DNA of 64,000 nucleotides from an uncultured Gammaproteobacteria bacterium (GCA_964573695.1 CAZNKB010000001.1:64565-128564); one strand, 5' to 3'. Positions 5,078-32,111 are shown, counted from the stretch's first letter. Notes: generated from the letters alone by a model not told the origin. Made by a program: numbers and translations.

Positions 5078-5106
5078 TACATATACACGACACTGTAAGG
5101 TATAAT
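5078..5106 (+). promoter_or_regulatory. Candidate promoter for the XRE gene, giving a near-leaderless transcript
   Basis: A consensus TATAAT sits at 5101-5106, 11 nt before the ATG at 5118. A weak -35 (tacata) lies 17 nt upstream. Confidence 0.3.
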
Positions 5107-5117
5107 CACCAGCAGAT

Positions 5118-5324: not shown

Positions 5325-5686
5325 CCCAGCATTATTCAGGAGAAATTATCACCGCCATATTTCTCATGCTGCTTCTTGCAGCATTTGTGAGCCCACCAGG
5401 ACTTCTCATGCCAAAGTCTTCAGAAATGATTTTTCTGGTCATCTTTGTCCTCTCGTTTTTTGTATACTTGGGATTTATATGGAAAGAAACGGCAGTTGAT
5501 GAACGTGAACACGCGCATCAACTCACTGCGGGAAGAATTTCTTTTTTTGTAGGCTCATCTATCCTTACTCTAGGTATTATTGGTCAGGCACTTACCCATA
5601 ATATTGATCCGTGGCTGGTGGGAGCGCTGGGTGCTATGCTGCTTACGAAAATTATTGTCAGGATCTATACGCAGATAACCCACTAA
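5312..5686 (+). CDS. Small integral membrane protein, partner of the XRE regulator
   Basis: 124 aa with three or four hydrophobic helices. It overlaps the XRE stop by 13 nt, which suggests a two-gene operon. Confidence 0.5.
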   Translation: MQKITQHYSGEIITAIFLMLLLAAFVSPPGLLMPKSSEMIFLVIFVLSFFVYLGFIWKETAVDEREHAHQLTAGRISFFVGSSILTLGIIGQALTHNIDPWLVGALGAMLLTKIIVRIYTQITH

Positions 5687-5708
5687 CATCCATGTATGTT
5701 AAGTCCAC

Positions 5709-5737
5709 TTGACATTCCCCTAAGATAACCTTATTGT
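5709..5737 (+). promoter_or_regulatory. Candidate sigma70-like promoter for the thioredoxin-like gene
   Basis: TTGACA at 5709-5714, a 17-nt spacer and TATTGT at 5732-5737. An AAGGAGG RBS sits at 5766-5772 before the ATG at 5776. Confidence 0.3.
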
Positions 5738-5775
5738 AAGATAAGTAACAAATATTTTCCTTTCAAGGAGGATGT

Positions 5776-6309
5776 ATGAATAACAAACTACTTATCATCG
5801 TGGGTGTTGTCGTTATTGGTACCCTTGGGGGGGTATATATCCGAAGCCAGCATTCAAACAACAATAACCAAATTGTGCCGAAACCCACGGGAGCCATGGA
5901 AAAAACAGAAAACGCTACAACAGAGCCGACCCGTGGCATGGTGGAAAAAACTGTAACACCGAGTGGTTCAACAAACAAAGACGAAGGAACAATGATGAAA
6001 AACGAATCACGGTATGTCGTGTATTCCAAAACGGCTTTTGAGACGGCCAAGGGGAAGAAGCGGATATACTTTTTTCATGCGCCGTGGTGCCCCACCTGCA
6101 GACCGGCTGACGCAGCTTTCCAAAAAGACGCCGCGCTTATTCCGGAAAACGTCGTCCTGTTTAAGACGGACTACGATACGTCGGCAGAGCTGAAAAAGCA
6201 GTATGCCGTTACCTACCAGCATACATTTATTCAGGTTGATGAGAATGGCCGCGAAGTGACAAGGTGGAACGGGGGCGCGATAGCGGAATTAACGGCAAAT
6301 ATTAGATAA
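5776..6309 (+). CDS. Membrane-anchored thioredoxin-family protein (WCPTC active site)
   Basis: 177 aa with an N-terminal TM helix and a FHAPWCPTC thioredoxin CxxC motif. A strong RBS is present. Confidence 0.7.
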   Translation: MNNKLLIIVGVVVIGTLGGVYIRSQHSNNNNQIVPKPTGAMEKTENATTEPTRGMVEKTVTPSGSTNKDEGTMMKNESRYVVYSKTAFETAKGKKRIYFFHAPWCPTCRPADAAFQKDAALIPENVVLFKTDYDTSAELKKQYAVTYQHTFIQVDENGREVTRWNGGAIAELTANIR

Positions 6310-9636: not shown

Positions 9637-10274
9637 ATATAAAGTGTACCGGTTTCGGTATGTAAACGGAATGCCGCTAGCGTTTGGTATACCGTACCGG
9701 TAGGATATGTCCTCGATTCATTAAGCACAATGGACTCAACAGACAGTGTCACCGGAATATACTCCGCAAACGAACGAATACGCGTCTGTGACAGAGTACC
9801 TTTGAGTCTTGCGAGTGTCACATGCGGGAGAACGTGATGACCGTTTTTGAGAACCACCCCTCCACATTCCTTTTTGAGAAATGCCGCTACTTTGCGAGTA
9901 ATAAGAGAAACCAGCGCCCGAAACTCGGGAGTGCCCGCAAACCTTGCCCAGATCATTTTCGGGTCTGACGGAGTGGCGACTTCAAATCTTAGAAACGGCA
10001 ATTTCATGGAAGGAAACGTATCCAAAAGCTGCCGAAGGAATTCGATAAGCTTTGGTATATGCCGTTTTTCAACATTCCCAATAAACCGTACCGTGATATG
10101 GAAATTCGCCTGTCGCGTCCAGTACGTGGGAACCTTGCCGGTTACCTCTGCACGCATGACTTTCTTCTGATACGTGACGAATGCCTCCTGCCAGATAGGC
10201 CCCAGTGGAATAGCGAGAAACAGGCGTTTGGTTTGTGATTTGTGCACCCAAATTTTGTTCAAACTTGTATGCAT
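9633..10274 (-). CDS. thpR: RNA 2',3'-cyclic phosphodiesterase (2H phosphoesterase, ThpR/LigT family)
   Basis: 213 aa with two HxTx motifs (HITVRF and HVTLAR) at the expected spacing. Confidence 0.75.
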   Translation of the reverse strand: MHTSLNKIWVHKSQTKRLFLAIPLGPIWQEAFVTYQKKVMRAEVTGKVPTYWTRQANFHITVRFIGNVEKRHIPKLIEFLRQLLDTFPSMKLPFLRFEVATPSDPKMIWARFAGTPEFRALVSLITRKVAAFLKKECGGVVLKNGHHVLPHVTLARLKGTLSQTRIRSFAEYIPVTLSVESIVLNESRTYPTGTVYQTLAAFRLHTETGTLYI

Positions 10275-10283
10275 ATCCTCTGC

Positions 10284-10670
10284 TTACTCATCCTCAGGTG
10301 GGTAAAATATCAACCCCGTATAGTCCTTACAGCGATCATCATGTTCGCGCTTGAGGACACTCATATCTTTCTTTTTTTCCCGGAAAAACATCATATAGGT
10401 ATTTACGACCGGGCGGATCCAGGGGAGGATCTGACGTGGAGATTTTTGTTCTGCCTGCATAAGGCACATGTCCCAATCCGTCAAAACACCATATGATCTG
10501 GTACAGGCACTAGACCAGTCAGAGAGTACTGTCTGCGATTGGGCTGCTATGGTGTCTAAGGAATCCTCAAATTGTACGTTACACGAAACCTCACGCAATC
10601 GGAGCGCAAATGAGAAAAAGGAAAAAATGACGACGCCAATAAATACGATGAGTGTAATGGCAACTTTCAA
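10284..10670 (-). CDS. Hypothetical membrane-anchored protein
   Basis: 128 aa with an N-terminal TM helix and no recognisable motif. Confidence 0.4.
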   Translation of the reverse strand: MKVAITLIVFIGVVIFSFFSFALRLREVSCNVQFEDSLDTIAAQSQTVLSDWSSACTRSYGVLTDWDMCLMQAEQKSPRQILPWIRPVVNTYMMFFREKKKDMSVLKREHDDRCKDYTGLIFYPPEDE

Positions 10671-10681
10671 ATCTATTTCTA

Positions 10682-11284
10682 TTATTGGTCCTTAAAGGCC
10701 CACAACGCAAGAGCGACGTATGTACGATATGGCTTCCATTTACTCGTTAATCGCTTCATATATGCATCGGTTGGCTCTTTTTTGAGCTTATAAAGCGACT
10801 GGATCGCCTTTCGTAATCCCAAATCCCCAAATGAAAATACGTCTTCTCTTCCTAAAGAAAACATAAGGAACATTTCAGCCGTCCAGCGACCTATCCCTTT
10901 TACTCGGGTCAGCTGCTGTATCACTTCCTCGTCTGTTTGCGCTGTCAAACTACCAAATATAACACTCCCGTCCGCAACAGCCCTGGCAAGCGATTTAAGG
11001 TACGCGACCTTTGACCATGAGACGCCCATATCCCGAAGTTTCTGGTCAGGAACTGCCAGAAGTTTTTCTGGAGTCACGGACGAACGAGGGAAAAGCGAGC
11101 AAAACCGCGTAAAAATCGTCCTGCCCGCCTTCTCGGACAACTGTTGATTTATGATCGCTTCAGCCAAATCCTTAAACGGCGTGCGGGAAAGCACAATTGC
11201 TTCTTTTCTGACGTGGTGAAGAATAGGCTCCAGTCTTGGATCCCGGGAACGCAAATGCTTTTGGATACGTGTACGATCGTACAT
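10682..11284 (-). CDS. alkA: DNA-3-methyladenine glycosylase II, AlkA-like (HhH-GPD superfamily)
   Basis: 200 aa. LTRVKGIGRWTAEMFLMFSLGREDVFSFGDLGLRKA matches the HhH-GPD motif with the catalytic Asp. Confidence 0.75.
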   Translation of the reverse strand: MYDRTRIQKHLRSRDPRLEPILHHVRKEAIVLSRTPFKDLAEAIINQQLSEKAGRTIFTRFCSLFPRSSVTPEKLLAVPDQKLRDMGVSWSKVAYLKSLARAVADGSVIFGSLTAQTDEEVIQQLTRVKGIGRWTAEMFLMFSLGREDVFSFGDLGLRKAIQSLYKLKKEPTDAYMKRLTSKWKPYRTYVALALWAFKDQ

Positions 11285-11437
11285 ATACTAGTCAGACGGA
11301 TAATATTGCTCGAGTGCTGAATCGGCCGCTACGCATCCGAATCGTATGCACTCAACCAAAGCAGTAAATCCAGGAAAAATCGTGGGTACGCGATCGATAG
11401 TAACCAGTTCGACCGGCATAGGAGAAAGGGTTATGCT

Positions 11438-11911
11438 TTACCACTTAAAGTGGGCAAACGCCTTGTTTGCATCAGCCATACGATGCACGGTATCGCGTTT
11501 CTTGATCGCTTCACCCAAGCCTTTGGACGCGTCAAGAAGCTCGACTGCTAGCTTTTCTGCAAATGAATGGAATTCCCGATTCGATCGTTTTTTGGCGAAT
11601 TCGACGATCCAACGGATAGCAAGAGCGACCCGACGATCCCCCCGCACTTCCATAGGAACCTGATATGAGGCTCCTCCTACTCGGCGGGCTTTGACCTCTG
11701 TTTTGGGCCCTACCGTATTGATCGCTGTTTCAAATACTTTGATCGGATCCTCTCCTTTGTCTTTGATGATATCGAGAGCCTTGTACACAAGCGCTTCCGC
11801 CACCGTTTTTTTGCCGCTCAACATCACTCGGTTCACGAAGCGGGTCACCAACCTGTTTCCGTATATGGGATCCGCAGGAAGGAGTTTATGATATGTTTTA
11901 CTTGTTCTCAT
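11438..11911 (-). CDS. rpsG: 30S ribosomal protein S7
   Basis: 157 aa, collinear with S7 (KRRVGGASYQVPMEVRGDRR). Confidence 0.95.
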   Translation of the reverse strand: MRTSKTYHKLLPADPIYGNRLVTRFVNRVMLSGKKTVAEALVYKALDIIKDKGEDPIKVFETAINTVGPKTEVKARRVGGASYQVPMEVRGDRRVALAIRWIVEFAKKRSNREFHSFAEKLAVELLDASKGLGEAIKKRDTVHRMADANKAFAHFKW

Positions 11912-11923
11912 AGGTAAATACGT

Positions 11924-12361
11924 TTATGACGCCTTGGCAGGAACCGGTCCGTCATTTGTTTTTTTGGTTCCGTATCGGCTGCGACCCTGACGTCGTGTCA
12001 CAACGCCGGTCGTATCAAACTTACCACGCACGACATGATATTTGACTCCTGGTAAATCCGGTACACGACCTCCGCGGATAAGCACTATTGCGTGTTCCGT
12101 CAGCTCATGTCCGATACCCGGAATATAGGCCGTCACTTCCTGCTTATTAGACAGTCTTACTCTCGCTACTTTCCGAAGAGCTGAGTTTGGCTTTTTCGGC
12201 GTCATTGTTTTGACCAGGGTCACCACTCCCCGTTTAAACGGAGCCGGAAGTGATTTGGTGACACCGTCTTTCGCATTAAAAAACTTGCGAAGTGCTGTCG
12301 CCTTGACCTTCTTGGCTTGTCTGTGTCGTCCGTGTCTGACTAATTGATTTACTGTTGGCAT
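11924..12361 (-). CDS. rpsL: 30S ribosomal protein S12, with a roughly 10-aa C-terminal extension
   Basis: 145 aa with PTVNQLVR...[16 protein letters not shown]. The C-terminal tail is longer than in E. coli S12. Confidence 0.95.
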
Positions 12362-12366
12362 AAATA

Positions 12367-15300
12367 TTACTCCTGAATCATAGCGCGCTCAGCGGAAACC
12401 GGAATAAGTCGTCCGATTATAACGTTTTCCTTAAGTCCTAACAACTTATCTTCCTTTGTGGCAAGCGCAGCATCGGTCAAAACATTGGTCGTTTCCTGGA
12501 ATGACGCTGCGGACAACCAGCTTTCTGTATAAAGGGCAGCCCTGGTGATTCCCAAAACGACAATGTGTGCCGTCGCCGGTTCGCCACCTTCTGCAAGTAT
12601 GCGGGCATTTTCCTCACGGAATCTGTTTTTGTCGACCAGTTCGCCAGGAAGCAACATCGTGTCTCCAGACGTATCAATCCGGACCTTATCACTCATTTTG
12701 CGGACAATGGCCTCAAAATGCTTGTCGTGAATGGAAATACCCTGGGATTCATAGACTTTTTGCACCTCGCCGATAAGGTAGTACTGAGCGCCGATCAGTC
12801 CACGCACCTGTAATACTTCTTTGACGTCAAGATATCCACTCCCAAGCTGATCTCCTGCGGCGACCAGATCACCGGTCTTTACGTTGATTTCACTGGTCAA
12901 CGGAACGAGGTATTCCCGTTCTTCCGGCGGCTTCATGGTCGTATTGGTTATTTTGACCTTGTATCCTTGCGGTGTCTCCGTTACCTCTGCCTTCCCTGCT
13001 ATCTCTGCTACAGGAGAAAGATTTCTCGGCGTTCGGGCCTCGAACAATTCTTCCACACGAGGCAACCCCTGGGTAACGTCCAATCCCACGATACCTCCTG
13101 CGTGACGGACCCGCATGGTAAGTTGTGTTCCCGGCTCTCCGATAGATTGAGCAGCCATGACGCCAACGGGTGTACCAAGCTCGACCAATTTGGTCGTCGC
13201 ATAATCTCGTCCGTAACATGTTGCACAGATACCGATTTTTGCCGCACATGCAATAGGAGACCGGACCAATACGGATTCCACATTAGCTTCGTCTATTTGG
13301 CGCCCCGTTTCTTCCGTAATCTCCTCACCCTTCTTGACGATGATTTTCTTGCTTCCCGGAACCAGAATATCTTCCGCGCTGAACCGTCCGGCAAGGCGAT
13401 TAGCAAACGGTATCTGACGTCCGTCTTTTCTTGAAAGGAGCCAGCCTTCGTCCGTTCCACAGTCCTGCAAACGGATAATCACATCATGGGCCACATCGAC
13501 CAATCGACGCGTCAGATATCCTGCGTCTGCAGTCTTTAACGCCGAATCGGTAAGGCCTTTCCGTGATCCGCGGGTACTGGTCACGTATTCGAAAATAGAA
13601 AGTCCTTCGCGGTAATTGCTCTTTGTCGGTAGTTCCACGATTTTACCTAGCGGATCGACGACCAACCCTTTAATGGCACACAGCTGTTTAAGCTGATCTT
13701 TACTTGCGCGGGCTCCTCCCGAATCGATAATCATTTTGACCGGATTATCCGCCGTCAATCGTTCCCAGGTAAGGTCTGCGATACGCTCCGTCACCTCTAT
13801 CCAGACTTCGTTGGATAGGCGTTTCTTTTCTTCCACGGTGATAAGACCCATTTGGAAATTCTGGTCGATTTCTTTGGCTTTCGTATCTGCATCGGCGATG
13901 ATATCTTTCTTTTCCGCTATGGATTTGTTGTCAAATACCGAAACGGATAATCCGCCGCACAGTGTCGCCCCGTAAAATCCGATATCTTTAATCGCATCGA
14001 TAAGGTGGGTTACTTCCTCTTTAGAATACATACCGAACGCCTTGGTAATAAGCTGCTTAATCGTCGCTGCCTTTACCGGTGTGTTGATATATCGAAGCCC
14101 TTCCGGCAACACCTCGTTGAACATGAGCTTACCGACTGTCGTGACCGTCATGACCCCGTTTACTATAATTTTGATCGGGGTCCGGAGCGCCACCTTACCC
14201 GTCTGGTGGGCATAAATTGCTTCTGAAATATCTGAGAATATATGGAGCGTTTTTTCATCTGCTCCTTCTTTCGACGGGTCGACAGTCGTGAGATAGTAAC
14301 ACCCGATAACCATTTCCTTATTCGGCACGGTAATCGGTGATCCGTCAGCGGGCTTCAACAAATTATGCGTCGGCAACATGAGATCAATCGCTTCCTGCTG
14401 AGCAGCTCCTGAAAGCGGGATATGCACGGCCATTTGATCTCCGTCAAAGTCGGCGTTATAACCGGCACACACACACGGATGAATCCGGATAGCAGCTCCC
14501 TCGATAAGCACCGGGTAAAACGCCTGGAACCCGAGTTTATGAAGTGTCGGGGCCCGATTTAACATAACCGGATGATTTTTGGTGATTTCTTCCAAAATGT
14601 CATATACCTCAGGAGTTCTACGCTCCAGGACATTCTTGGCATTTTTGACGTTGGGAGCAATACCCCGCACGATCAGCTCACGAAGGACAAATGGCTTGAA
14701 CATCTCAAGCGCCATTTCTTTCGGAAGTCCGCATTGATTGAGTTTAAGTTCGGGACCAACGACGATAACGGATCGTCCTGAATAGTCTACACGCTTACCC
14801 AATAAGTTCTGACGGAACCGTCCCTGCTTACCCCGAAGCATATCGGAGAGTGAACGGAGCGGCTGTATCACCGTGCGACTGGAAGGCCGCTGTGTTGCAT
14901 CGATCAAGCTGTCTACCGCTTCCTGCAGCATGCGTTTTTCGTTGCGCAGAATAATTTCCGGCGCCCCCAAATCCATAAGATGCTTCAAGCGGTTGTTGCG
15001 GTTGATGACGCGGCGGTATAAATCGTTTAAGTCGCTGGTTGCAAACCGACCGCCGGTGAGTTGTACCATAGGGCGCAGATCCGGAGGAATAACAGGCAAC
15101 GTGTGCATGACCATCCAGGCCGGATTGATCATGGATTTACGCATACCGTCGACGACACGCAGCCGTTTCGTTGCTTTGACATGGCGCTGTCCGCTGGAAT
15201 TCTGGATCTCTTCTCGGAGTTCGGCCGCAAGCTTATCGAGATCGATCTTTTTAACCACTTCGAGCATCGCTTCTGCTCCCATACCGACCTTCAAAAACGA

Positions 15301-19656: not shown

Positions 19657-20073
19657 ATGTTTTTTACCCCGGTGAATTATCTCGCTATCATAGCCGCTGC
19701 CGCTGCCAGCATGGTCGTAGGATTCGTCTGGTACTCGCCTCTTCTTTTTGCAAAACCCTGGATGAAATTTTCCGACCTGGATGAGAAGAAACTGAAGGCC
19801 GCGCAAAAACACATGACAAAAACATACAGCATCTCTTTCGTGGCGGCACTCATCACGGCGTATGTTTTGGCTACCCTACTCAATACGATGCTGGTTGCCT
19901 CCCTTCTAGAGGGATTTATACTGGCGGTCCTCGTGTGGCTTGGATTTGTCGCAACGACTATGGTAACGGGCGTCCTCTTCCAGAAAATGCCGTGGGGATT
20001 ATTTTTTATCAACAGCGGGTATCAGCTCGCATCCATAGCAGTCATGAGTATCATCCTCACGCTGTGGGTATAA
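19657..20073 (+). CDS. DUF1761-family membrane protein
   Basis: 138 aa. The N-terminus MFFTPVNYLAIIAAAAASMVVGFVWYSPLLFAKPW resembles the DUF1761 signature. Confidence 0.55.
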   Translation: MFFTPVNYLAIIAAAAASMVVGFVWYSPLLFAKPWMKFSDLDEKKLKAAQKHMTKTYSISFVAALITAYVLATLLNTMLVASLLEGFILAVLVWLGFVATTMVTGVLFQKMPWGLFFINSGYQLASIAVMSIILTLWV

Positions 20074-20079
20074 AGCTCC

Positions 20080-20595
20080 TTACGGATTCAGAAGCCAAAT
20101 ATTATAATTGAGTACCGTAGCAAACGATACCCATGCCAAATACGGAAGCATGAGATACGAGCTTACCCGGTCGAGATCATGAAATCGTAAGGTAAGGAAA
20201 ATAACCAGCACCCAGATAATGGAGATATCCACAAATCCCAACGGGATATTACGCCCGCCGAAAAAAATAATAGACCACAATGTGTTGAACACCAAATGAA
20301 TAAGGAAAAGAAATACGGCGTTTCGCACCGGCTTATTTTTCATCCCTAACCTGCTGACCCGATATGCCGCTATACCCATGAGCGCGTAGAGCACAATCCA
20401 TACCGGGCTAAAAATCCAGCTAGGAGGATTAAACGAAGGCTTCGTGATCGCGGTATACCATGTGGGGATAGAAGAAACGGTAAATAGCGCCCCGATAATG
20501 CCCGCAGATTCGCAAAACGCAATCCAACTAATCAAATCCACCCAACGAACGGGCATACGTTTCGACGAATTCAGGCGCGGGCTGCGGCGTTTCAT
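20080..20595 (-). CDS. tspO: TspO/MBR tryptophan-rich sensory protein
   Basis: 171 aa with five TM helices and the WYxxLxKPSFNPPxW...VW..LYxLMGIA signature. Confidence 0.8.
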   Translation of the reverse strand: MKRRSPRLNSSKRMPVRWVDLISWIAFCESAGIIGALFTVSSIPTWYTAITKPSFNPPSWIFSPVWIVLYALMGIAAYRVSRLGMKNKPVRNAVFLFLIHLVFNTLWSIIFFGGRNIPLGFVDISIIWVLVIFLTLRFHDLDRVSSYLMLPYLAWVSFATVLNYNIWLLNP

Positions 20596-20736
20596 CTTAT
20601 TACTGTATCACAACATAAGTTGCCCTTCTATTGACTCATGTTTCGCGGCTTACTTTAAACGAATTTTCGAGGCGTGATTATACAATTTATTGCTACTACC
20701 TGGGATACACATACTCCATATAGCATACCAAATTAT

Positions 20737-21033
20737 TTATACGCCAAGGCGCGTTCTGGGTCTTTTTTTGGAGCGAATAGGTAACGTCATCATAAGATCA
20801 ACCAGCTCGTTGGATGAAGCATTTGCGTACACCGGATTTCCCTGCGGGTCGACGTCAATGACGACACGTACATCTTCTTCTGCAACTAACCCTCGCGCGA
20901 TACGGTCAGCTAGTTTACGCTCTTCAGTTAATGGGTGACTTCGAAGCGCGCTTCTGCGTCTAAATCTTTTTGATCGCTCTTGCCTTCCCGCCATAATGGC
21001 GTGAGTATAGTCAAACGGCAAGTAAGAACGCAA
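20737..21033 (-). CDS. Hypothetical small basic protein
   Basis: 98-aa ORF co-oriented with its neighbours. No motif recognised. Confidence 0.3.
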   Translation of the reverse strand: MRSYLPFDYTHAIMAGRQERSKRFRRRSALRSHPLTEERKLADRIARGLVAEEDVRVVIDVDPQGNPVYANASSNELVDLMMTLPIRSKKRPRTRLGV

Positions 21034-21051
21034 GAAGCAATAGCATAAGGG

Positions 21052-21450
21052 TTACTCTGAGGTAACTCCTTCAAAATGCTCATCGTCGGCGACGGCTTCA
21101 TCCCGGGTTCTGTGTACGATACCGTCCGCATGATGAGCCGGACTATAGAGCGTATAGAGCTTGAGCTCTTCGGTTTGAGACGTGTTGATCACATTGTGTT
21201 TTGCTCCCGCCGGAATGACCACGGCAGTCCCGTCGAGTACGTCATGACGCACGCCGTCAATGATCACTATTCCTCTACCTTTTTCAAATCGGAAAAACTG
21301 ATCATTGTCTTCATGGATCTCTTCTCCGATTTCTTCACCGGGTTTTAGGCTCATCAGCACCAACTGACTGTGTTTACCCGTATATAGCACCGTGCGGAAG
21401 TTGATATTTGCAAGCGCCAGTTGCTCTATCTTGCCGACATATCCTTTCAT
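21052..21450 (-). CDS. Cupin-domain protein
   Basis: 132 aa with a G(x)5HxH...E...G...H-like two-motif cupin pattern (GEEIGEEIHED...PAGAKHNV). Confidence 0.6.
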   Translation of the reverse strand: MKGYVGKIEQLALANINFRTVLYTGKHSQLVLMSLKPGEEIGEEIHEDNDQFFRFEKGRGIVIIDGVRHDVLDGTAVVIPAGAKHNVINTSQTEELKLYTLYSPAHHADGIVHRTRDEAVADDEHFEGVTSE

Positions 21451-21517
21451 ATATATATTATATGCACACCTGAAGCAGATATTTTGTTAACAAACTCACA
21501 CATGCTACGATAGAAGA

Positions 21518-21844
21518 ATGAATATAAATATCCGCATGATTTATCTTTATTTGTTTTCCTTTGTCGGCTTGTTTACGGTCGTCATCGGCTCAGTCCGCAT
21601 GGTAGACCTGGGACTTAAAGTGCTCGTGTTCAAGGACGCCGATCGTTATGAATACTCCGCCGTGAAACCTCTGGATGATACTGGTGATGCAGTAGACGAA
21701 CAGGCGATGAAAGAACAAGCGGCTCGTGAACAGACCCGTAACCGGCAGCGCGAATTCAGCGGAGCAATCGCCATGATTGCAGTCGGGCTTCCACTCTATC
21801 TCTACCACTGGAAGACGATCCAGAAGGAAAACAAAAAACACTAA
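21518..21844 (+). CDS. Hypothetical two-TM membrane protein
   Basis: 108 aa with hydrophobic N- and C-terminal helices flanking a charged loop. Confidence 0.4.
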   Translation: MNINIRMIYLYLFSFVGLFTVVIGSVRMVDLGLKVLVFKDADRYEYSAVKPLDDTGDAVDEQAMKEQAAREQTRNRQREFSGAIAMIAVGLPLYLYHWKTIQKENKKH

Positions 21845-22925: not shown

Positions 22926-22954
22926 TTGCATGAAGTGCATGCACTCGGTATAGT
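22926..22954 (+). promoter_or_regulatory. Promoter for the zinc-ribbon repeat gene (leaderless transcript predicted)
   Basis: TTGCAT at 22926-22931, a 17-nt spacer and TATAGT at 22949-22954. The first ATG at 22963 lies about 8 nt downstream, so no room for an SD. Confidence 0.4.
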
Positions 22955-22962
22955 TGCTGCAT

Positions 22963-23511
22963 ATGACAGATACAACATGTCCCAAATGCGGCAATCCCTT
23001 AGGTCCGATCGTTGAAACCAAATCCGGCAAACAAATGCAGAAATGCAGCACCGGTCACTGGAATCCGGAAACGAAAAAGAACGAAGGCTGCGACTACGTG
23101 AAGTGGATCGTACCCGAACCCAAAAGTCTGGATGAAAAATGCCCCAAGTGCGGCAGTCCGCTCGTCATGATGGTAACGCGTTTCGGCAAAAAAATGAAAA
23201 AATGTTCGACGAACACCTGGAACCGGGAAACGAAAAAAGCCGAAGGCTGCGATTATGTGGAGTGGATTAACGGCAGCACCGAACCACTCGACGAGGATTG
23301 CCCGGAGTGCGGCAAAAAACTCGTACTCTACACAACGGCAAGCGGCAAGAAAATGAAAAAATGCTCAACCTCAGGGTGGGATCGGGAAAAGAAACAGGCC
23401 ACTGGATGCACATACGTGCAGTGGCTCAAACCAGGAGAATATCCCGTGGAACACAAAGCAAACGGCGAGGAATTTTTACCTCCGGAACCTCCCGACGCGG
23501 AAGACGCGTAA
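22963..23511 (+). CDS. Standalone protein of three tandem topoisomerase-type C4 zinc-ribbon repeats
   Basis: Three repeats of about 53 aa (about 159 bp each), each with CPKCG...KCST..W..ETKK.EGCDYV.WI. This resembles the zf-C4_Topoisom module at topo I/III C-termini. The ORF track starts at TTG 22954, but the ATG at 22963 is more likely. Confidence 0.6.
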   Translation: MTDTTCPKCGNPLGPIVETKSGKQMQKCSTGHWNPETKKNEGCDYVKWIVPEPKSLDEKCPKCGSPLVMMVTRFGKKMKKCSTNTWNRETKKAEGCDYVEWINGSTEPLDEDCPECGKKLVLYTTASGKKMKKCSTSGWDREKKQATGCTYVQWLKPGEYPVEHKANGEEFLPPEPPDAEDA

Positions 23512-24937: not shown

Positions 24938-25780
24938 TTACTTTTTCGACGATATATACTTACGCGCGGCCTTCACGGCGATACTACCGCCGGGGATAAA
25001 TATACCAGCTGCATCGGCTCCGATATCGAAGAGGAAATCCGTGTCCAGCACTTTACCCAAATACTCGCGGAATATTCTGCTACCGCTCGATACATTGCCG
25101 GTCACCCCGTCTATTTCCACGATCGCGTCTTTCCCTTTGCTTTTCCAGTGAAACTGAAATGCATACACCGGCCGGTAATACAGATCGACTGCGGAAACCT
25201 CGACGTGCTCTTCGAGAATGGTATCCGCCTGAATTCCCTTGATCATCTTAGAAAGCGCGTCGCGCATGATTGCCGATACCCGCGCCTGTGGAGGAACGAG
25301 AATGGAATCTTTGGCTACCATTTTCTCAATTTTTCCTTTCACCTCATCTGAGGGCTTATTCACGTATTCGGCCAGCTCAGCAAGATTCTTTCCACTCACT
25401 CCGTCCACATAGACAATCTCATGCTCTTCCTGTGTGCAGTGCTCGGTAACCGGCATATGGATATGTCCGTTTGTTTCCTGGTAGTCGGTACCGAGTACCG
25501 TCACGGACTTCACTTCTTTGCCACCGGTGCTTACCTGATATGTCGCATTGCGGTCATAGACATATTTCGCTTGTGCCGCCACATACCAGAACGGCTGGTA
25601 GCGGTGTTCGTTATAGGTAAGCTCAAAGTCATCGTCTTTGGGGCGTGAGAAAAATCCGGTTACTTTGCTCAACGCGTCAAACGCGCTGGATTTCCTTTCC
25701 CACGCCTTTTTTTCTGCGACAGATTGAGTTACCTGGTCCTTAAGAAGTAATATCCGCTGCTTGGCGACATCTATTTTCAT
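24938..25780 (-). CDS. Hypothetical protein (no recognisable family)
   Basis: 280 aa, soluble. Second gene of a two-gene minus-strand cassette immediately beside the R-M island. Confidence 0.5.
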   Translation of the reverse strand: MKIDVAKQRILLLKDQVTQSVAEKKAWERKSSAFDALSKVTGFFSRPKDDDFELTYNEHRYQPFWYVAAQAKYVYDRNATYQVSTGGKEVKSVTVLGTDYQETNGHIHMPVTEHCTQEEHEIVYVDGVSGKNLAELAEYVNKPSDEVKGKIEKMVAKDSILVPPQARVSAIMRDALSKMIKGIQADTILEEHVEVSAVDLYYRPVYAFQFHWKSKGKDAIVEIDGVTGNVSSGSRIFREYLGKVLDTDFLFDIGADAAGIFIPGGSIAVKAARKYISSKK

Positions 25781-25781
25781 A

Positions 25782-26576
25782 TCATTTACACGCTACGAGA
25801 AGCGTATGGTGTTTCTGACTACCGAGGTTTATATCAACTGAAGTACCATTGATCGTTTTGTCATCAAACATGACACGCATTGACCGGCTAACTCCAGGAA
25901 AATTATATCTCATCCCATAGATTTGGACTTGTATGTCGGACGGATCTGTTGCATCGACATGCACTTGAAGCGGTGGCAATTTTGCGACTGCCTCACCTCC
26001 TGCGGGAATAGACTGATTGGGCAACATGAGTCCTGGTATATTGACGGCAACACTTGCCGCAGGTTCTAATGGCGCACATCCGACGTTTTTGATGACGACA
26101 GATACTTCGGTTACTTTGAGCGCCACTACTCCGACTGCGATAAGAGTTAATATCCCCAGCGGCCCTTTGGCCGCTCCGAATATATTCCATGCGGATGTCG
26201 CTTTGTCCGCGATCGTTTTTTGAGAAAAATCATTGCCGATTTCCTTTTCTACACGAGTCACTTCTGATTTAAGCGTATTCCAGTATCCTAAGAAAAGGAG
26301 AAACGCCTTTTTCCGTTTCCTGTCCTCTGGGGAAAACTCAGGAATGGAGTCGAGAGCAAGGGATATGACTTCTCCTTTTTGTAAATGAGAAAATTTAGTC
26401 CCCGCTTTTGCGGCCGCATCAAGGGCTGCATTTAACTTCGGATGAATGTCGTATAACAACGTCCTGAGCGTCGGGATTGTGGAAGCATCAAGCGTTCCCT
26501 TTTGGAGAAGTTCCTGCGCAGCAGCAATACGTTTCTGCACCGTCTTCGCATCCATATATTGGAGGTATTGTAGCAC
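25782..26576 (-). CDS. Hypothetical single-pass membrane protein
   Basis: 264 aa with an N-terminal helical soluble region, one TM (GPLGILTLIAVGVVALKV) and a C-terminal extracytoplasmic region. Only 1 nt separates it from the downstream gene. Confidence 0.5.
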   Translation of the reverse strand: MLQYLQYMDAKTVQKRIAAAQELLQKGTLDASTIPTLRTLLYDIHPKLNAALDAAAKAGTKFSHLQKGEVISLALDSIPEFSPEDRKRKKAFLLFLGYWNTLKSEVTRVEKEIGNDFSQKTIADKATSAWNIFGAAKGPLGILTLIAVGVVALKVTEVSVVIKNVGCAPLEPAASVAVNIPGLMLPNQSIPAGGEAVAKLPPLQVHVDATDPSDIQVQIYGMRYNFPGVSRSMRVMFDDKTINGTSVDINLGSQKHHTLLVACK

Positions 26577-26602
26577 ACAATCAAAACAAAATTATTAGCG
26601 AA

Positions 26603-28162
26603 CTAGCTTAATTTTGACCTAAACTTCTCAAATACTTTTTGCGTATATACTTCCATGTCTTGCAAGTTTTCTTGCCTAATTGTAGTTTCGACGAAGTTTT
26701 CTATGCTATACGGTTTGATATTTACTTTCTTGCTCTCTGAAGAGCTTAATATGGAGGCGACATCAAAATAATCTTTGGTATCAGAATGAATAGTTGGCGC
26801 AACTAAAGATAAATATTTATTTCTATAGCTCTTAAACTCTTCCTCAGTATTCAAATGCCTTATCACAGACGTCGTTTCATTATTTAGTAGCTGTGTCTTA
26901 TTACGAATTAATGTTACTTCAATAAGCCAAAAAACCTCCGAAGAATAGACATCGATATCACCTAAATTACCAGGTGCGTGTGAGTAGGGCTTACCATATT
27001 GATCTGCTTTATAATTTGGCCTTAAATGAAATTTTTCGCCATAGGTTAATGCAATTAATATAGCAATATAAAACTCTAGTTTTAACGGTCTCGATATTTC
27101 TCTGAAATCCTCGATGACTATATTATTAGAATCTATAGACTTAATGCACTCAAGAATTTTCTTTTCGTCAATTTCATAAACTTTGATTAACTCAATTATT
27201 TTACTCGTATACTTTTCTCCATCTATCCTGTCTAAGCGTCTATACTTAACGACTAAAGATAAATACTGTTTATCTAAATGTGACAATTTATTATAATAAC
27301 TTTCTGCGTTAATTTTCTCGCCGGGCTCAAGTTCAAAACGAACCCTAAGCAAATCTAATATATATTCCAGTTTATTTTCGTTTATCTCAATAAATTTTAT
27401 TCCGCTGTAGCGAGTAGTAATGAAACCGGCAATATTCATAATTCTTCTTACAACATCTGGATAATCCTTCGTTACCGTGTTTATGGAGTTAGTAACCCCG
27501 TACTCATGTCTTAAATAATCATAAACTCCATCGAAATCAGAAAACTTATGTGAATCAATAACGTCAATAAATTGTTGAACATCTCCATTCTGGCTAAACG
27601 TTAATATTACAAATTGCTCGTATGTTAGCGCTCTTCCTTTCTCCTTTAGCTTTAGTAGCACTTCAAGTGCAAAACGGAAAAAATTGAAGTCATTTAGGAC
27701 GTTTCTATAAGGCGATTTTCTATTGTATTTCATCGCCTGTATCGAAAAAGCTTCCTGCTCATCTATTTCACCCCTAATAAGCTTATTAGCGATTTCAGAA
27801 ATTTTAAATGGCTCGTTATATTGTGAGTAAATCATGCCTAATTCCGATAAAGTTCTCATATATGTCCAAAAACGAGAAGGATACCCGCATGGAAAACCGC
27901 CATCTGCCCTTCTTGTAGAATTAACCTTAATTATAGCTCGCGACACATCTTCGTCAGTTAAATTATCAGAAATTAGTATACCTTTACTTGTTACCACTCC
28001 TACGCGGTACAAATGGCACATAATTTTCAATAAATTTCTGTCATTAAGAATGACGTTCTCAAAATTAACTAACTCAACCAAAATATCTAAGTACCGCTCA
28101 GGATTTCTTACCGCTGTTTCAAATGCCATTTGTTTATATTTAGGAGATATTTTATTAGTCAT
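26603..28162 (-). CDS. Putative Type II(S) restriction endonuclease (family unassigned; AlwI-like is a guess)
   Basis: 519-aa AT-rich ORF lying directly downstream of two tandem m6A methyltransferases. No conserved housekeeping motif. Context-based call. Confidence 0.5.
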   Translation of the reverse strand: MTNKISPKYKQMAFETAVRNPERYLDILVELVNFENVILNDRNLLKIMCHLYRVGVVTSKGILISDNLTDEDVSRAIIKVNSTRRADGGFPCGYPSRFWTYMRTLSELGMIYSQYNEPFKISEIANKLIRGEIDEQEAFSIQAMKYNRKSPYRNVLNDFNFFRFALEVLLKLKEKGRALTYEQFVILTFSQNGDVQQFIDVIDSHKFSDFDGVYDYLRHEYGVTNSINTVTKDYPDVVRRIMNIAGFITTRYSGIKFIEINENKLEYILDLLRVRFELEPGEKINAESYYNKLSHLDKQYLSLVVKYRRLDRIDGEKYTSKIIELIKVYEIDEKKILECIKSIDSNNIVIEDFREISRPLKLEFYIAILIALTYGEKFHLRPNYKADQYGKPYSHAPGNLGDIDVYSSEVFWLIEVTLIRNKTQLLNNETTSVIRHLNTEEEFKSYRNKYLSLVAPTIHSDTKDYFDVASILSSSESKKVNIKPYSIENFVETTIRQENLQDMEVYTQKVFEKFRSKLS

Positions 28163-29066
28163 AGTTTGTAACTAAAACCTCGTCAATTTTTTTCTTAGAA
28201 TTGTTGTGAAAACTTATGTAATTACTATTTATAGTATAAACCTTGTAGCTACGCATCCAAGCTTTAAATATATGGTTGTACACGTTTTTATGGAAAACTA
28301 TGTTTGATACTGCAAATTTAATTTTTTTTTCGTTCAACCAATCAAGTAATTTTATTAGTTCCATCTCCTTATCCGAATTCCACAGTTTATTATATTCACT
28401 AAAAGATATTAAATATGGCGGATCTAAATATACGAAATCCCCCTTTTGAAATTTAATTGATTTAATAAAATCTATGTAATCCATTGTTGAAATTATAATA
28501 TTTCTATCTTCCACCGCCGAAAAATAACTTTTTAGTGCGGAAGCGACGTTTATATTAAAGTCTACGTTGCCGACGGGGAGATTAAATTTCCCTTTTGAAT
28601 TAAATCTCAAAATACGATTGAAGCCGTAGATCAGAAGCATGTATAATTTTAGGTAGTCCTTTATTTTCTCTTTATTAAAATCATTTCTTAACTTAAGATA
28701 GCCTGGCTTATTAAACTTTGCATAATAAGTTTTAGTCCACTTTTTTCTATACAGTTTAGGTACCACGTCTTCCCAGTAGGAACGAGAAAGATTATATTTT
28801 TTTGCGATTTGATTAACTTTCGCAAACAACTTAGACCCATTATCTGAATTGCTTATTAAAAATTTATGTAGGCGGCAAATATTTTTGTCTATATCATTTA
28901 GTAGATAACTTTTTGCTTCTATATTTAAAAATACGGACCCTCCACCAACAAATGGCTCTATAAACCTAATAATTTTCGCGGGGAAATGTTTTTTAATTTC
29001 CGCCAATAATTTATACTTATCTCCAACATAAAAGAGTGGCGAGCGCTTAATGCTTGTTTTTCTCAT
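28155..29066 (-). CDS. Dam-class (D12) N6-adenine DNA methyltransferase M1
   Basis: Motif I FVGGGS and motif IV DPPY. The likely start is MRKTSIKRSPLFYVGDKYKLL at 29066; the track gives 29105. Confidence 0.8.
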   Translation of the reverse strand: MRKTSIKRSPLFYVGDKYKLLAEIKKHFPAKIIRFIEPFVGGGSVFLNIEAKSYLLNDIDKNICRLHKFLISNSDNGSKLFAKVNQIAKKYNLSRSYWEDVVPKLYRKKWTKTYYAKFNKPGYLKLRNDFNKEKIKDYLKLYMLLIYGFNRILRFNSKGKFNLPVGNVDFNINVASALKSYFSAVEDRNIIISTMDYIDFIKSIKFQKGDFVYLDPPYLISFSEYNKLWNSDKEMELIKLLDWLNEKKIKFAVSNIVFHKNVYNHIFKAWMRSYKVYTINSNYISFHNNSKKKIDEVLVTNYD

Positions 29067-30069
29067 ACGTTTTTGTAATAAATAACCACTCCTGGTGATT
29101 ATCAAAGTTTGTTTTTCCGCTATTAAAAAATCTGTGACTTTTTTTAAATATCATACTTTTGCCTTTTTCATTTAGAATCTCCTCTATTTGTTCGAGAGTT
29201 ATCTTGTTTCTGGAGGAGTGACTACGGGAGTTGTAGGTATTATTATACGAAACTACGATATAGTCACACTTTAAATTCTTTATGAGGTCGGCAAAAGCAT
29301 CTTTGGCCTCGACCGTACAATAACGGCTGGAATTTTCCGTGGGAGGCTTTAGAGCAACTCCGGATAATTTTCGCTTATCCCACTTCACTAATGTTTCGAG
29401 CAAATGATAAAAACGGCTATATTGTCTGGAGTTATACGGGGGGTCTATATAAACAACGTCTGCCTTAATTTTTTTTGCTAACGCATTTGCGTCCTGCCGG
29501 TATATATCCACCTTCTTTACCTTATGTGTATTTATCGGCCTGAGTAAGATTCTTTTATTGAGTATCGGTTTTTTGATATACGCATCATAATGACCAACCG
29601 TATTTGCATTTCTATCGACTGCATAAAGAAGTGATGTGAGAAGAATTGCATATTCTCTTTTGGATACCTTCTTTTTATTTTTTTCTATATCTTCACGTAT
29701 GAATCCTATGATTTTTGCGTTCTCGCGGGTAAAGTACTTCCCACCGAAATATCTGGAAAAATAATTAGGCGCTAATTCTTTCGCGTTTACTGAGTTATAG
29801 AGATCAAGATACTTTTTAATTTTTTTCGGCCGGAATTTACCCGAACCAAAAAAAGCATCGTAAATTACCTTGTTGGAATAGAGAAAGTCATTGATGATGA
29901 CATGCTTGTATTCCTTAATAGCTCTCGCGGAAATCACTCCAGTACCGGCAAACAGATCCGCAAATATTTTCCCCTCACAATTATTATCGATATGGGAAAA
30001 TATCCAATCTATAAGCTTAAATTTACTTCCGATATATCTTCTGCTCTCTAAACTAAATACCTTGTTCAT
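29047..30069 (-). CDS. Dam-class (D12) N6-adenine DNA methyltransferase M2
   Basis: Motif I FAGTGV and motif IV DPPY. The likely start is MNKVFSLESRRYIGSKFKL at 30069; the track gives 30147. Two tandem adenine MTases are typical of systems recognising asymmetric sites. Confidence 0.8.
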   Translation of the reverse strand: MNKVFSLESRRYIGSKFKLIDWIFSHIDNNCEGKIFADLFAGTGVISARAIKEYKHVIINDFLYSNKVIYDAFFGSGKFRPKKIKKYLDLYNSVNAKELAPNYFSRYFGGKYFTRENAKIIGFIREDIEKNKKKVSKREYAILLTSLLYAVDRNANTVGHYDAYIKKPILNKRILLRPINTHKVKKVDIYRQDANALAKKIKADVVYIDPPYNSRQYSRFYHLLETLVKWDKRKLSGVALKPPTENSSRYCTVEAKDAFADLIKNLKCDYIVVSYNNTYNSRSHSSRNKITLEQIEEILNEKGKSMIFKKSHRFFNSGKTNFDNHQEWLFITKTYEKNKH

Positions 30070-30128
30070 GATTATATAAATAGACAATATTAATCTCTTA
30101 TTATCCGAGCACGTAATAAGCTTCACGC

Positions 30129-30488
30129 TTAATATCTTTGCCTCCACCCCGATCTTCCCGTTGTTCTTTCTAAAACACCCTCCACTTCCTCTTTATCATG
30201 TATATTATCAACACTTCCTAATACTATCTCATTATCCTCAGGATTAGCACCGGAAAACTGCACGATAATCCCGCGATTTCTCCTCGTTCCGATGACCGCG
30301 ACATAATGGCCGCGATAGTCGCGCTCTCGCCTGGGTATTGAACTCTCCCAAAAATGCGCGTTAGGGAGATTTTCTACTACCACGTGCTCAACCAACATAC
30401 ACCACGAGGCTGGACGATTTCTCGTGTACCGAAACCAGTCACCACGCTTTTTTTTGATCTGAGAGATGATTTCCTTTGGGGTAGGCAT
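30129..30488 (-). CDS. Hypothetical protein at the island boundary
   Basis: 119 aa of native GC composition. Its 3' end runs into the AT-rich island. Confidence 0.4.
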   Translation of the reverse strand: MPTPKEIISQIKKKRGDWFRYTRNRPASWCMLVEHVVVENLPNAHFWESSIPRRERDYRGHYVAVIGTRRNRGIIVQFSGANPEDNEIVLGSVDNIHDKEEVEGVLERTTGRSGWRQRY

Positions 30489-30543
30489 TTGTTTGGCCTA
30501 TTATATAGCTCTGTCTAGACTCTATCAAACCAGAAATTCTGAC

Positions 30544-31017
30544 TTACACCTCCGAGGTGTAAGTGTCGAGGTCGGCAAGTATTTGAGCCGTGTGAACTAG
30601 TGGGTTCACTTTTTCATACACCTTCGCCACCTCACCCTTGGGATCGATGAGGTAGGTAATCCTGAGAATCCCGTCGTGGCTTCGCCCCATAAACTTTTTC
30701 TCTCCCCAGGCCTTGTAGGCTTTAATCGTCGAGAGTCTCTCGTCACTGAGTAACGGGAAATTCAAGTGAAATTTATCCGCAAACTTTTTGTGTGAGGACG
30801 CGCTATCCTTTGATACTCCCAGGACCACCACATTCTTCTTTTCAAGCTCAGCGGCATTATCCCGGAAACTGCACGCCTCTTTCGTACACCCCGGTGTATC
30901 GTCTTTGGGGTAAAAATAAAGAACTACCCATTTTCCACGATAAGCACGAAGCGTATGTACCTTACCGTTTTGATCCGCTAATGAGAAGTCATCTGCCACT
31001 TTATTCATTTGGGCCAT
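30544..31017 (-). CDS. bcp: Peroxiredoxin Bcp (thiol peroxidase, AhpC/TSA family)
   Basis: 157 aa with an FYPKDDTPGCTKEAC peroxidatic Cys motif. Confidence 0.85.
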   Translation of the reverse strand: MAQMNKVADDFSLADQNGKVHTLRAYRGKWVVLYFYPKDDTPGCTKEACSFRDNAAELEKKNVVVLGVSKDSASSHKKFADKFHLNFPLLSDERLSTIKAYKAWGEKKFMGRSHDGILRITYLIDPKGEVAKVYEKVNPLVHTAQILADLDTYTSEV

Positions 31018-31022
31018 ATGGG

Positions 31023-32111
31023 TTATTTTAGCATGCGCTCACTGTCAAATCGCATTGCATCAAGTATTGCCCTGCTCACTACGCCCTCCAAAAAATACGG
31101 CTGTCCGTAATCCATGACCCGGATCGGGAGATATTCCACGTCTATCAACTTCCCTTCGTAGAATGTATACCTACCTATGACTCCTCGCTTGGTTTCTTCA
31201 CTCCACTCCTGGTCGAATACAAAATTACCATGCGCGTATACAATAAATTTGTCCTTATATAGCTCGACAGGCTGAATCCAATGCGGATGATTCCCGAGCA
31301 CTACGTCTGCCCCCGCATCCACCGCCAGATGTGCCAGGTCCCGTTGTCGCATTGTAGGTTCTGATACGTATTCAACTCCCCAATGGTAAGAAACGATAAC
31401 CACGTCCGCACGTTGGCGGGCGGCTCTTATATCTGACTGAATAATAGCTTCTTCTGCCCACGGCACGCCCGCCTCCCGGGAGCCGATATCGTTATACGCC
31501 AAAAACGAAAAAACAGTTCCCTTCACTTCCTTATACTCAGCCCGGGTGGAAACAGGGAGAATGCCGGCCTCGGACAAATGCTTCTTGGTTTCTTCTATCC
31601 CTGCCTCGGAATAATTCCCTATGTGGTTATTCCCGAGTGTAGCGACATCGACGCCGGCGTAGGTAAATCCGTCGATAGATCTGGCATCCGCGCAAAAAAT
31701 CATCCCTTCGACAGTCGCAGTACATGTTGCAAGAAGCGGCGTTTCCAAATTAATCACTGTAAGATCAGCGTCTCGCAATATCTCTGCGGTTTTTTCAAAC
31801 GGCCAGCGGAAATTCTTTCTTACCAACATACCGTGATTTACCGAACGGGCTGGGATAACATCGCCGGTAGCAATCAGCCTAACTGTTTTCTCCTGTGGCA
31901 ACCCCATTATCCACGAATGGTCGATTGCAAATATGCTTTCGAGTGAAATAGAAGAAACCGAAAATATTTTCGGGGATTGAGAGACAACCCGCTGCTCCTG
32001 GCCCAGGATATCCGGAAACGTAACAACCGGATCCCGGTAGAGATACCAGCCCGCAAAAAATACAGCGGTGAGAATAATTACACCGGGGAAAAACCGCCAA
32101 AACATACGCAT
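31023..32111 (-). CDS. CapA/PgsA-family metallophosphatase (poly-gamma-glutamate capsule synthesis-like)
   Basis: 362 aa with an N-terminal TM and IATGDV...NLE.P...GNHPHW motifs. Confidence 0.7.
   Translation of the reverse strand: MRMFWRFFPGVIILTAVFFAGWYLYRDPVVTFPDILGQEQRVVSQSPKIFSVSSISLESIFAIDHSWIMGLPQEKTVRLIATGDVIPARSVNHGMLVRKNFRWPFEKTAEILRDADLTVINLETPLLATCTATVEGMIFCADARSIDGFTYAGVDVATLGNNHIGNYSEAGIEETKKHLSEAGILPVSTRAEYKEVKGTVFSFLAYNDIGSREAGVPWAEEAIIQSDIRAARQRADVVIVSYHWGVEYVSEPTMRQRDLAHLAVDAGADVVLGNHPHWIQPVELYKDKFIVYAHGNFVFDQEWSEETKRGVIGRYTFYEGKLIDVEYLPIRVMDYGQPYFLEGVVSRAILDAMRFDSERMLK

Follow-up and report, generated by a model that had tools for sequence, protein, structure and literature searches.

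The AlwI restriction-modification (R-M) system of Acinetobacter lwoffii recognises an asymmetric 5-bp site, GGATC, and cuts a few bases away (4/5) with an endonuclease of the PF09491 family that has one catalytic site per chain; its two strand-specific adenine methyltransferase (MTase) activities, one per strand, are joined in a single chain (PMC4081073, PMC3017599). Both AlwI and MlyI, a GAGTC enzyme related to Nt.BspD6I / Nt.BstNBI, act as (homo)dimers (PMC3017599), and MlyI is accompanied by a single GASTC MTase (PMC4081073). In Caldicellulosiruptor, R.Cal02329 / CsaDORF2754P combines an AlwI-family endonuclease with separate M1 and M2 MTases in one operon and has been linked to GCATC/GATGC, a 5-bp asymmetric site with a CATC/GATG core that carries N6-methyladenine (m6A) on both strands (PMC9799307). 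Here we describe an AT-rich island at 26577-30150 of a 64,000-nucleotide stretch of uncultured bacterial DNA (CAZNKB010000001.1:64565-128564; the window is this whole stretch). The island encodes a 519-amino-acid (aa) endonuclease, R, and two MTases, M1 and M2. We consider it very likely that these form a complete and probably active AlwI-family Type IIS R-M operon with two strand-specific MTases, located in a variable slot of the host genome.

Like AlwI, which is compared here by description, the island pairs a PF09491 endonuclease having one catalytic site per chain with two adenine MTases; unlike AlwI, it carries the MTases as two overlapping genes, and GGATC shows no avoidance signal in the present host. 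The Caldicellulosiruptor system, likewise compared by description, has the same three-gene layout but belongs to a different host phylum, and its GCATC is unavoided here (observed/expected ratio, O/E, 1.23). MlyI differs in its single MTase, against two in the island. The GAGTC system Nt.BspD6I / Nt.BstNBI with ss.BspD6I differs more: identity is 13%, its large subunit goes undetected by sequence search of solved structures, and it is a heterodimer of 604-aa and 186-aa chains, whereas the present cassette is without a small subunit. FokI and its fused M.FokI (GGATG/CATCC) are set apart by an endonuclease family that differs at the sequence level, and GGATG is weakly depleted in the host (0.84).

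A first-pass annotation of the window had read the island as an R-M system with one endonuclease and two separate D12-class adenine MTases, in the layout expected for an asymmetric (Type IIS) site. The profile matches and conserved co-oriented genes described below bear out the first part, and the matches to PADLOC and Pfam models, together with the published two-MTase systems (PMC4081073, PMC9799307), agree with the second. The same annotation left the endonuclease family open and possibly novel, and proposed a profile search for RE_AlwI as a check. That search placed R well above the curated threshold (Pfam PF09491 RE_AlwI, 178.2 bits against a cutoff of 23.1, E 3.7e-52), and the 542-position, REBASE-derived PADLOC model REase_II (PDLC03507) matched residues 7-499 at E 1.7e-41. 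More than 120 full-length homologues at 53-61% identity were found in a 5.8-billion-protein collection, and an exhaustive search of 1.84 billion cluster representatives yielded 335 related clusters. Every informative name among the homologues is 'AlwI family type II restriction endonuclease', the remainder being generic, and the named ones come from Gracilibacteria, Nomurabacteria and Bacteroidales metagenome-assembled genomes (MAGs). The plasmid and phage collections gave only 'AlwI family' matches at 23-31% identity, none of them from phage, and exact-protein look-ups of R, Bcp and Orf280 returned no match. Thus, judged by its profile matches, R is a clear member of the RE_AlwI family, which is described and already annotated, and the suggestion of novelty falls away.

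The predicted fold of R is that of a BspD6I/FokI-type PD-(D/E)XK nuclease. Its best structural match is the nickase Nt.BspD6I (18.8, 374 residues aligned), followed by the BpuJI recognition domain (15.7), the BspD6I small subunit (15.2) and FokI (10.8). As in FokI and BspD6I, an N-terminal recognition region is joined to a single C-terminal PD-(D/E)XK-type catalytic domain. Residues D402, E415, E429 and R435-H436 show no variation across 25 sequences and correspond in the alignment to the D, IE, E and RH positions of the ss.BspD6I catalytic core, which suggests a catalytic role for D402, E415 and E429. The motif takes the non-canonical form D...E-x-T...E, and for this reason the PD-(D/E)xK signature was missed by eye in the first-pass annotation.

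The closeness to BspD6I raises another possibility: R might nick one specific strand, as Nt.BstNBI / Nt.BspD6I do, or depend on a small catalytic subunit, encoded separately, for cleavage of both strands. The nickase is the best structural match, its small subunit is the only sequence-level match of R in the PDB, and PADLOC includes a 'Type II nicking endonuclease' model that hits the catalytic domain at E 3.5e-14; the full-length REase_II model nevertheless scores far better, and the 519 aa of R are nearer to its 542 positions than to the 604-aa nickase (PMC4081073). No small-catalytic-subunit-like open reading frame (ORF) occurs in the 3.55-kb cargo or in any of 72 complete cassettes from other genomes, which makes a nicking-only R less likely. 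The downstream gene, orf264, belongs to the host backbone and has no family match, and a 244-aa ORF found in one subclade (see below) is unrelated to the catalytic domain. Since AlwI and MlyI are also described as homodimeric (PMC3017599), we regard a nicking or two-subunit enzyme as improbable, and continue with R as a double-strand endonuclease of the AlwI type.

Both MTases carry the D12-class motifs reported for them earlier, with FxGxG (motif I) upstream of DPPY (motif IV): FVGGGS and DPPY in M1, FAGTGV and DPPY in M2, with DPPY at residues 228 and 235 of the M1 and M2 mechanical ORFs. Both match PF02086 (E 1e-33 for M1, 4.1e-37 for M2), and PADLOC MTase_II models are matched almost end to end (M1, 4.7e-104; M2, PDLC03373, 5.9e-130). 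M2 and M1 align, respectively, to the N- and C-terminal halves of two fused PADLOC MTase models of 646 and 722 positions. M1 exceeds the cutoff of the Dam-subfamily model TIGR00571 (151.5 bits against 114.85) and matches T4 Dam (1yfj) at E 1e-43, while staying under the cutoff of the E. coli Dam equivalog NF008152 (85.7 bits against 441). M2 scores far below the TIGR00571 cutoff and has no sequence match among the solved structures of the PDB; at the sequence level it is a more distant D12 enzyme and not Dam-like. No other protein with MTase motifs was seen among the genes of the window.

Transcription of the three genes runs along the minus strand from M2 through M1 to R. The first 20 nt of M1 lie within the end of M2, and the first 8 nt of R within the end of M1, an arrangement that points to one operon. 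The 303-aa form of M1 matches the public record, and 337-aa orthologues align with the 340-aa form of M2 from residue 1. The best sigma-70-like match of the region lies upstream of the neighbouring gene orf119, and transcription from it might continue into the cassette; shuffled sequence yields at least as many promoter-like sites as the region does.

The same module recurs elsewhere. We examined nine loci reached through exact homologues and 80 metagenome loci; M2, M1 and R stand in the same order on the same strand in 72 of the 72 loci that contain all three genes, and the MTases are separate ORFs here and in every homologous cassette seen. Identities to the window copies are 56-57% for M1, 54-59% for M2 and 54-60% for R, and the three proteins co-vary, which suggests that the module is inherited as a unit, probably with one specificity kept. 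In some genomes it lies between serine recombinases, or beside a tyrosine integrase with a primase, and so appears to travel on mobile elements there.

Several variants of the module were observed. In the subclade of loci L007 (6943-11569) and L008 (5612-10199), M2 is fused to an N-terminal helix-turn-helix (HTH) domain (HTH_3/19/31), and an additional 244-aa ORF of unknown function lies between M1 and R; we considered it as a small catalytic subunit and rejected it, since it has no similarity to R or to its catalytic domain. M2 is fused to a UPF0758_N (RadC N-terminal) domain in L006 and L009, and a small HTH_17 gene precedes M2 in L001. These possible control elements are missing from the cassette of the window. 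L006 also carries a second R-M pair (19771-21530), a HinfI/TdeIII-family restriction endonuclease (REase) with a D12 MTase, 8 kb downstream of its AlwI-type cassette.

R-M systems in reduced genomes often decay, and one could suppose that the cassette is a remnant with orphan MTases and an inactive R. The R gene is uninterrupted and full-length with every family-invariant catalytic residue, the three ORFs have full length relative to orthologues and are free of frameshifts, and motifs I and IV of both MTases are intact, so we hold a decaying remnant to be very unlikely. For the intact operon we propose the following model. The recognised sequence would be an asymmetric 5-bp site, with M1 modifying the adenine of one strand and M2 that of the other, the two enzymes representing an unfused version of the two-domain AlwI MTase. 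R would bind the site as a monomer through its N-terminal FokI/BspD6I-type recognition region, cut a few bases to one side (downstream) with its single C-terminal PD-(D/E)XK-type domain and, by analogy with AlwI and MlyI (PMC3017599), probably pair transiently with a second copy for the cut in the other strand. It weighs against this reading as a whole that function is assigned by homology. The analysis establishes directly the family, the fold, the operon structure, the conserved module, the slot boundaries and the alternative cargos, while enzymatic activity, cleavage geometry, recombination route and recognition sequence are inferred.

The island stands out by composition. Its guanine-cytosine (GC) content is 33.0%, against 48.5% across the remaining window, where 3.6-kb stretches have a mean of 48.5%, a standard deviation (SD) of 1.3% and a minimum of 45.6%. 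The quantitative check that had been named beforehand thus upheld the shift, at about 12 SD below other stretches of this size. The drop to about 28% that was first reported is real as a drop, but it describes a local minimum (27-30%, at about 28000-28800) and the mean is 33%. R, M1 and M2, all on the minus strand, fill the island as had been described: the cargo consists of a 59-nt leader, M2, M1, R and a 25-nt tail, and outside its three genes it holds only these 59 and 25 nt.

The rest of the window is housekeeping DNA (EF-Tu, EF-G, RpoB/C, S7/S12, AlaRS, PNPase, IF-2, NusA). The neighbouring peroxiredoxin gene is closest to those of Candidatus Gottesmanbacteria and Microgenomates MAGs (64-71% identity), which makes the host a Patescibacteria (Gottesmanbacteria-like) bacterium; its genome is ultra-small. 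Through the orf119 cluster we located a sister strain, L170 (Logan SRR22388145 contig 18172), that is 95.9% identical to the window over 7.8 kb. Its homology runs to the final base of the orf119 stop codon (30129) and picks up again at 26577, 22 nt ahead of the probable orf264 ATG. Between the same junctions as window 26578-30128, the L170 slot (10271-13328) holds an unrelated 3058-bp cargo that encodes RadC, a MazG-like protein and a 624-aa Schlafen-type helicase matching the PADLOC PDC-S41, AbiO and Nhi models. Aligning neighbours from related genomes, which the first-pass annotation had put forward, therefore fixed both cargo edges; measured against the L170 junctions, the orf264-side (right) edge it had given is exact and the orf119-side (left) edge is 22 nt off.

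A genus-level relative, L010 (Ca. Gottesmanbacteria UBA6580, DJJA01000003.1), keeps the outer synteny, with DUF2207, HTH, CapA and Bcp on one side and HflX and a zinc-ribbon protein on the other. Between bcp and hflX (11500-14500) it has an AT-rich island of its own (27-38% GC), whose cassette encodes a HinfI/TdeIII-family REase, a D12 MTase and a CcrM/HinfI-type N6_N4 MTase. Across the three relatives, one set of conserved genes encloses three defence cargos that are unrelated to one another, and the alignments show the cassette as what at present fills a sharply delimited, variable defence slot between orf119 and orf264. Hotspots at which defence islands exchange their cargo are a known phenomenon, which this slot resembles in its unrelated cargos, its conserved neighbours and its lack of an integrase. 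It differs in lying in an ultra-small Patescibacteria genome and in being bounded to the nucleotide, the comparison covering three genomes only.

How the cassette arrived had been described as unknown, with no integrase, transposase, tRNA or clear target-site duplication flanking it. Our searches of the window and the island edges agree on the absences: there is no integrase- or transposase-like ORF among the genes of the window, no tRNA in the window, and no flanking direct or inverted repeats, target-site duplication or terminal repeats above chance at the island edges. The route itself is narrowed by the finding of a bounded slot with different cargo in close relatives. An integrase-mobilised genomic island was considered and rejected, given the lack of a tRNA and of significant flanking repeats and the 59 + 25 nt of non-genic cargo. 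Since integrase, tRNA and target duplication are all absent, the likeliest route is replacement of the slot content by homologous recombination through the conserved flanks. The flanks are mosaic, the 5' part of bcp (window 30679-30977) being 80% identical between the two strains against 96-98% elsewhere; lying beside an indel, this low identity suggests a recombination mosaic. Two points weigh against recombination: a donor sequence did not turn up, and immediately at the junctions (94-96%) there is no clear excess of divergence. The indel, a second one beside the slot, lies between capA and bcp (5 bp at window 31017-31023, against L170 7846-9380), and the L170 insert has two extra ORFs, of 145 and 208 aa, with no family match.

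We then asked which site the system reads, using expected word counts from a maximal-order Markov model over the host DNA of the window (1-26576 + 30151-64000). The word CCATC/GATGG occurs 15 times where 96.7 occurrences are expected (O/E 0.16, Poisson P about 5e-25); among the 512 5-mers it ranks first overall and in each of five independent segments, with the next word at 0.64. ACATC, GCATC, TCATC and all CATCN words have O/E values of 0.84-1.33, and no sixth base strengthens the effect, so the avoided word is 5 bp long. Avoidance of GGATC or GAGTC, which would have pointed to an AlwI- or PleI-type specificity, was looked for and dismissed, neither word being avoided (0.96 and 0.95), nor GATC (0.90).

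The natural first guess for a PF09491 enzyme is a strict AlwI isoschizomer, with GGATC/GATCC recognised and both MTases reading the GATC core. R belongs to the AlwI Pfam family, M1 is a Dam-family enzyme close to T4 Dam, a GATC enzyme, and the AlwI system also has two strand-specific MTases (PMC4081073). As an indirect proxy, word avoidance speaks against it in the host, in cassette flanks (GGATC O/E 1.12) and within cassettes (1.48), and so do the unfused MTases and an M2 that is not Dam-like. The recognition hairpin of M1, YGFNRILRFNSKGKFNLPVGNV, is also informative. EcoDam uses R124 to recognise the C:G pair at position 4, and K9 together with Y138 for position 1; the position-1 contact is not a conserved feature of the Dam family (PMC4417163). 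Aligned to EcoDam, the M1 hairpin retains the equivalents of Y119 (as F), N120, R124 and P134, with L122 present as I; the Y119, N120, R124 and P134 equivalents are kept in all 38 M1 orthologue variants. The Y138 position, which by our own counting from the alignment is R130 in T4 Dam, is Val in M1 and in 37 of the 38 variants, and Ile in one. M1 is thus without the full set of GATC-reading residues, the position-1 reader present in both solved GATC enzymes being replaced. Taking both sides together, GGATC is an unlikely site.

Because M1 keeps the R124-type reader of pair 4 and lacks the position-1 reader, it suits an N-A-T-C strand such as that of CCATC. Our leading candidate is therefore a BccI-like site, CCATC/GATGG, with M1 acting on the C-C-A-T-C strand and M2 on the G-A-T-G-G strand, an assignment to which we give somewhat less than an even chance. 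BccI of Bacteroides caccae recognises the word that this host avoids and cuts it at 4/5 (PMC5665511), the geometry of AlwI (PMC3017599); since BccI is compared by site and cut geometry only, shared membership is a lead; one of the named 58%-identical homologues of R comes from a Bacteroidales MAG. L010 provides a reciprocal control. With its GANTC-type cassette it has 16 GANTC sites against 36.7 expected (O/E 0.44, P about 1e-4) and does not avoid CCATC (0.76), while GANTC stands at 0.93 in the window; the slot occupant thus matches the avoided word.

It is also possible that the avoidance is unrelated to the cassette, owing to another CCATC system elsewhere in the genome or in the past, while the cassette reads a different asymmetric site. 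Several results count against the CCATC assignment and bear on this alternative. L170 avoids CCATC without having the cassette (5 sites against about 15.6 expected), and another system beyond the visible 64 kb of the genome could be responsible. The island itself has 4 CCATC sites against 3.7 expected and is the only stretch of the window at normal density, whereas the accessory DNA of L170 (slot cargo and second insert) has 0 CCATC/GATGG against 7.7 expected, so the island seems to have entered late, into a lineage where avoidance of the word was already established. The comparison across genomes, begun with nine loci, was extended to 42 non-redundant cassette flanks totalling 433 kb, where CCATC has an O/E of 0.84; the value for 76 control loci is 0.93. 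CCATC is among the ten most depleted words in 5 of 36 cassette loci against 2 of 76 control loci, and several long cassette flanks are without any CCATC depletion. This signal is weak and neither confirms nor kills the CCATC idea. Strong avoidance of assorted R-M sites was moreover common in the metagenomic contigs examined, which favours a coincidence. On the other hand, CCATC is an asymmetric 5-mer with one A per strand, exactly as fits a Type IIS nuclease with two m6A MTases; the cassette is the sole R-M system in the 64 kb; the residues of M1 fit an N-A-T-C strand; and in L010 the slot occupant and the avoided word agree. We would place an unrelated origin of the avoidance only a little short of evens. 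For the recognition site itself, whatever likelihood is left by CCATC and GGATC falls to some other asymmetric word. Between the window and L170, CCATC site turnover runs in the direction that CCATC recognition predicts (3 sister-only, 0 window-only), in numbers far too small to count, and within 56 non-redundant cassettes (L001-L009, L090-L169) the CCATC O/E of 0.69 is not decisive.

Those 56 cassettes are also depleted in sites of other systems: GAATC 0.47, GACTC 0.47, CTAAG 0.49, CTCAG 0.48, CATCC 0.59, GCAGC 0.49 and GGACC 0.33, with GGATC over-represented as given above. We grouped the strongest of these as GANTC, CTNAG, GGATG and GCAGC; such depletion is expected for DNA that moves between restricting hosts. 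In the flanks, near-total avoidance of single words was seen for GCAGC in L013 (1 against 17.8 expected), GAATC in L094 (0/14), GCAGC and CTCAG in L099 (2/15 and 1/12.6), CTAAG in L116 (0/12.7), CGACG in L136 (0/15.1) and CATCC in L146 (2/21). Strong site avoidance seems to be common in these small metagenomic and Patescibacteria genomes.

The coordinates of the features are collected in Table 1. The anchor genes orf119 and orf264 and the adjacent orf280 were unmatched by any Pfam, NCBIfam or PADLOC model, and scanning genomes with orf264 was equally fruitless. Among the fetched loci the three genes were found in L170 only, as orf119 and the start of orf264, where the contig ends. Elsewhere in the window, a 185-aa protein with three tandem zinc-ribbon repeats (CPxCG...KMxKCST..W....K...GC.YV.W) is 87% identical in L010, and one further stretch falls below 40% GC, at 38-40%.

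Table 1. Features of the island, its anchor genes and the CCATC/GATGG sites (positions in the window)
Feature	Position	Strand	Basis or remark
Cargo (island proper), 3551 bp	26578..30128	-	blastn and MAFFT junction alignments, window vs L170; GC 33% vs 48.5%
M2, mechanical ORF	29047-30147	-	extends to GTG 30147
M2, D12-class (alpha) N6-adenine DNA MTase, 340 aa	29047..30069	-	ATG 30069 most likely
M1, mechanical ORF	28155-29105	-	ORF call
M1, Dam-family D12-class N6-adenine DNA MTase, 303 aa	28155..29066	-	ATG 29066 most likely
R, AlwI-family Type IIS restriction endonuclease, 519 aa	26603..28162	-	ORF, profile match
R residues about 1-345, predicted helical / winged-helix DNA-recognition region, FokI/BpuJI/BspD6I type	27128..28162	-	boundary approximate
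R residues about 358-519, predicted PD-(D/E)XK-type catalytic domain and C-terminal helices	26606..27091	-	
R family-invariant residues D402, E415-V-T417, E429, R435-H436	D402 26957-26959; E415 26918-26920; E429 26876-26878	-	
Best sigma-70-like promoter match of the region, TTGATA-17-TATAAT, 11/12	30500..30528	-	consensus match only, upstream of orf119
orf119, left anchor gene	30129..30488	-	host-like 46% GC; conserved in L170; cargo starts at the base after its stop codon
orf264, right anchor gene	25782..26576	-	host-like GC; probable ATG 26555; L170 homology resumes at 26577
orf280	24938-25780		host-like GC, beside orf264
185-aa zinc-ribbon-repeat protein	22954-23511	+	
Stretch below 40% GC	5001-5800		124-aa ORF 5312-5686, hydrophobic N-terminus
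Host CCATC/GATGG sites (15)	1843, 4149, 4798, 9524, 15111, 19447, 23169, 34949, 36924, 42628, 43829, 47481, 49533, 54759, 58839		
Island CCATC/GATGG sites (four)	27219, 27528, 27900, 28361		

Together, our results lend little weight to a novel nuclease, the family being already annotated and the two-MTase layout being the textbook solution for asymmetric sites. Two Patescibacteria strains that are 96% identical differ by a cassette exchange placed to the nucleotide, and a genus-level relative has a third cargo; this neatly illustrates a defence slot free of integrase in an ultra-small genome. The about six-fold avoidance of CCATC, together with the reciprocal GANTC control, makes a testable prediction of specificity for an uncharacterised Type IIS clade. 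It is tempting to speculate, although we hold the idea tentatively and rate it below an even prospect, that the 520-aa AlwI-family clade, widespread in Patescibacteria, Bacteroidales and marine bacteria, is the natural CCATC/GATGG (BccI-type) system. If so, the six-fold depletion of CCATC in this genome would be the trace of a cassette that has, over long periods and at the level of populations, cycled through a slot open to recombination without an integrase, and for uncultured Patescibacteria the words that a host avoids could be enough to tell the recognition site of an R-M system.

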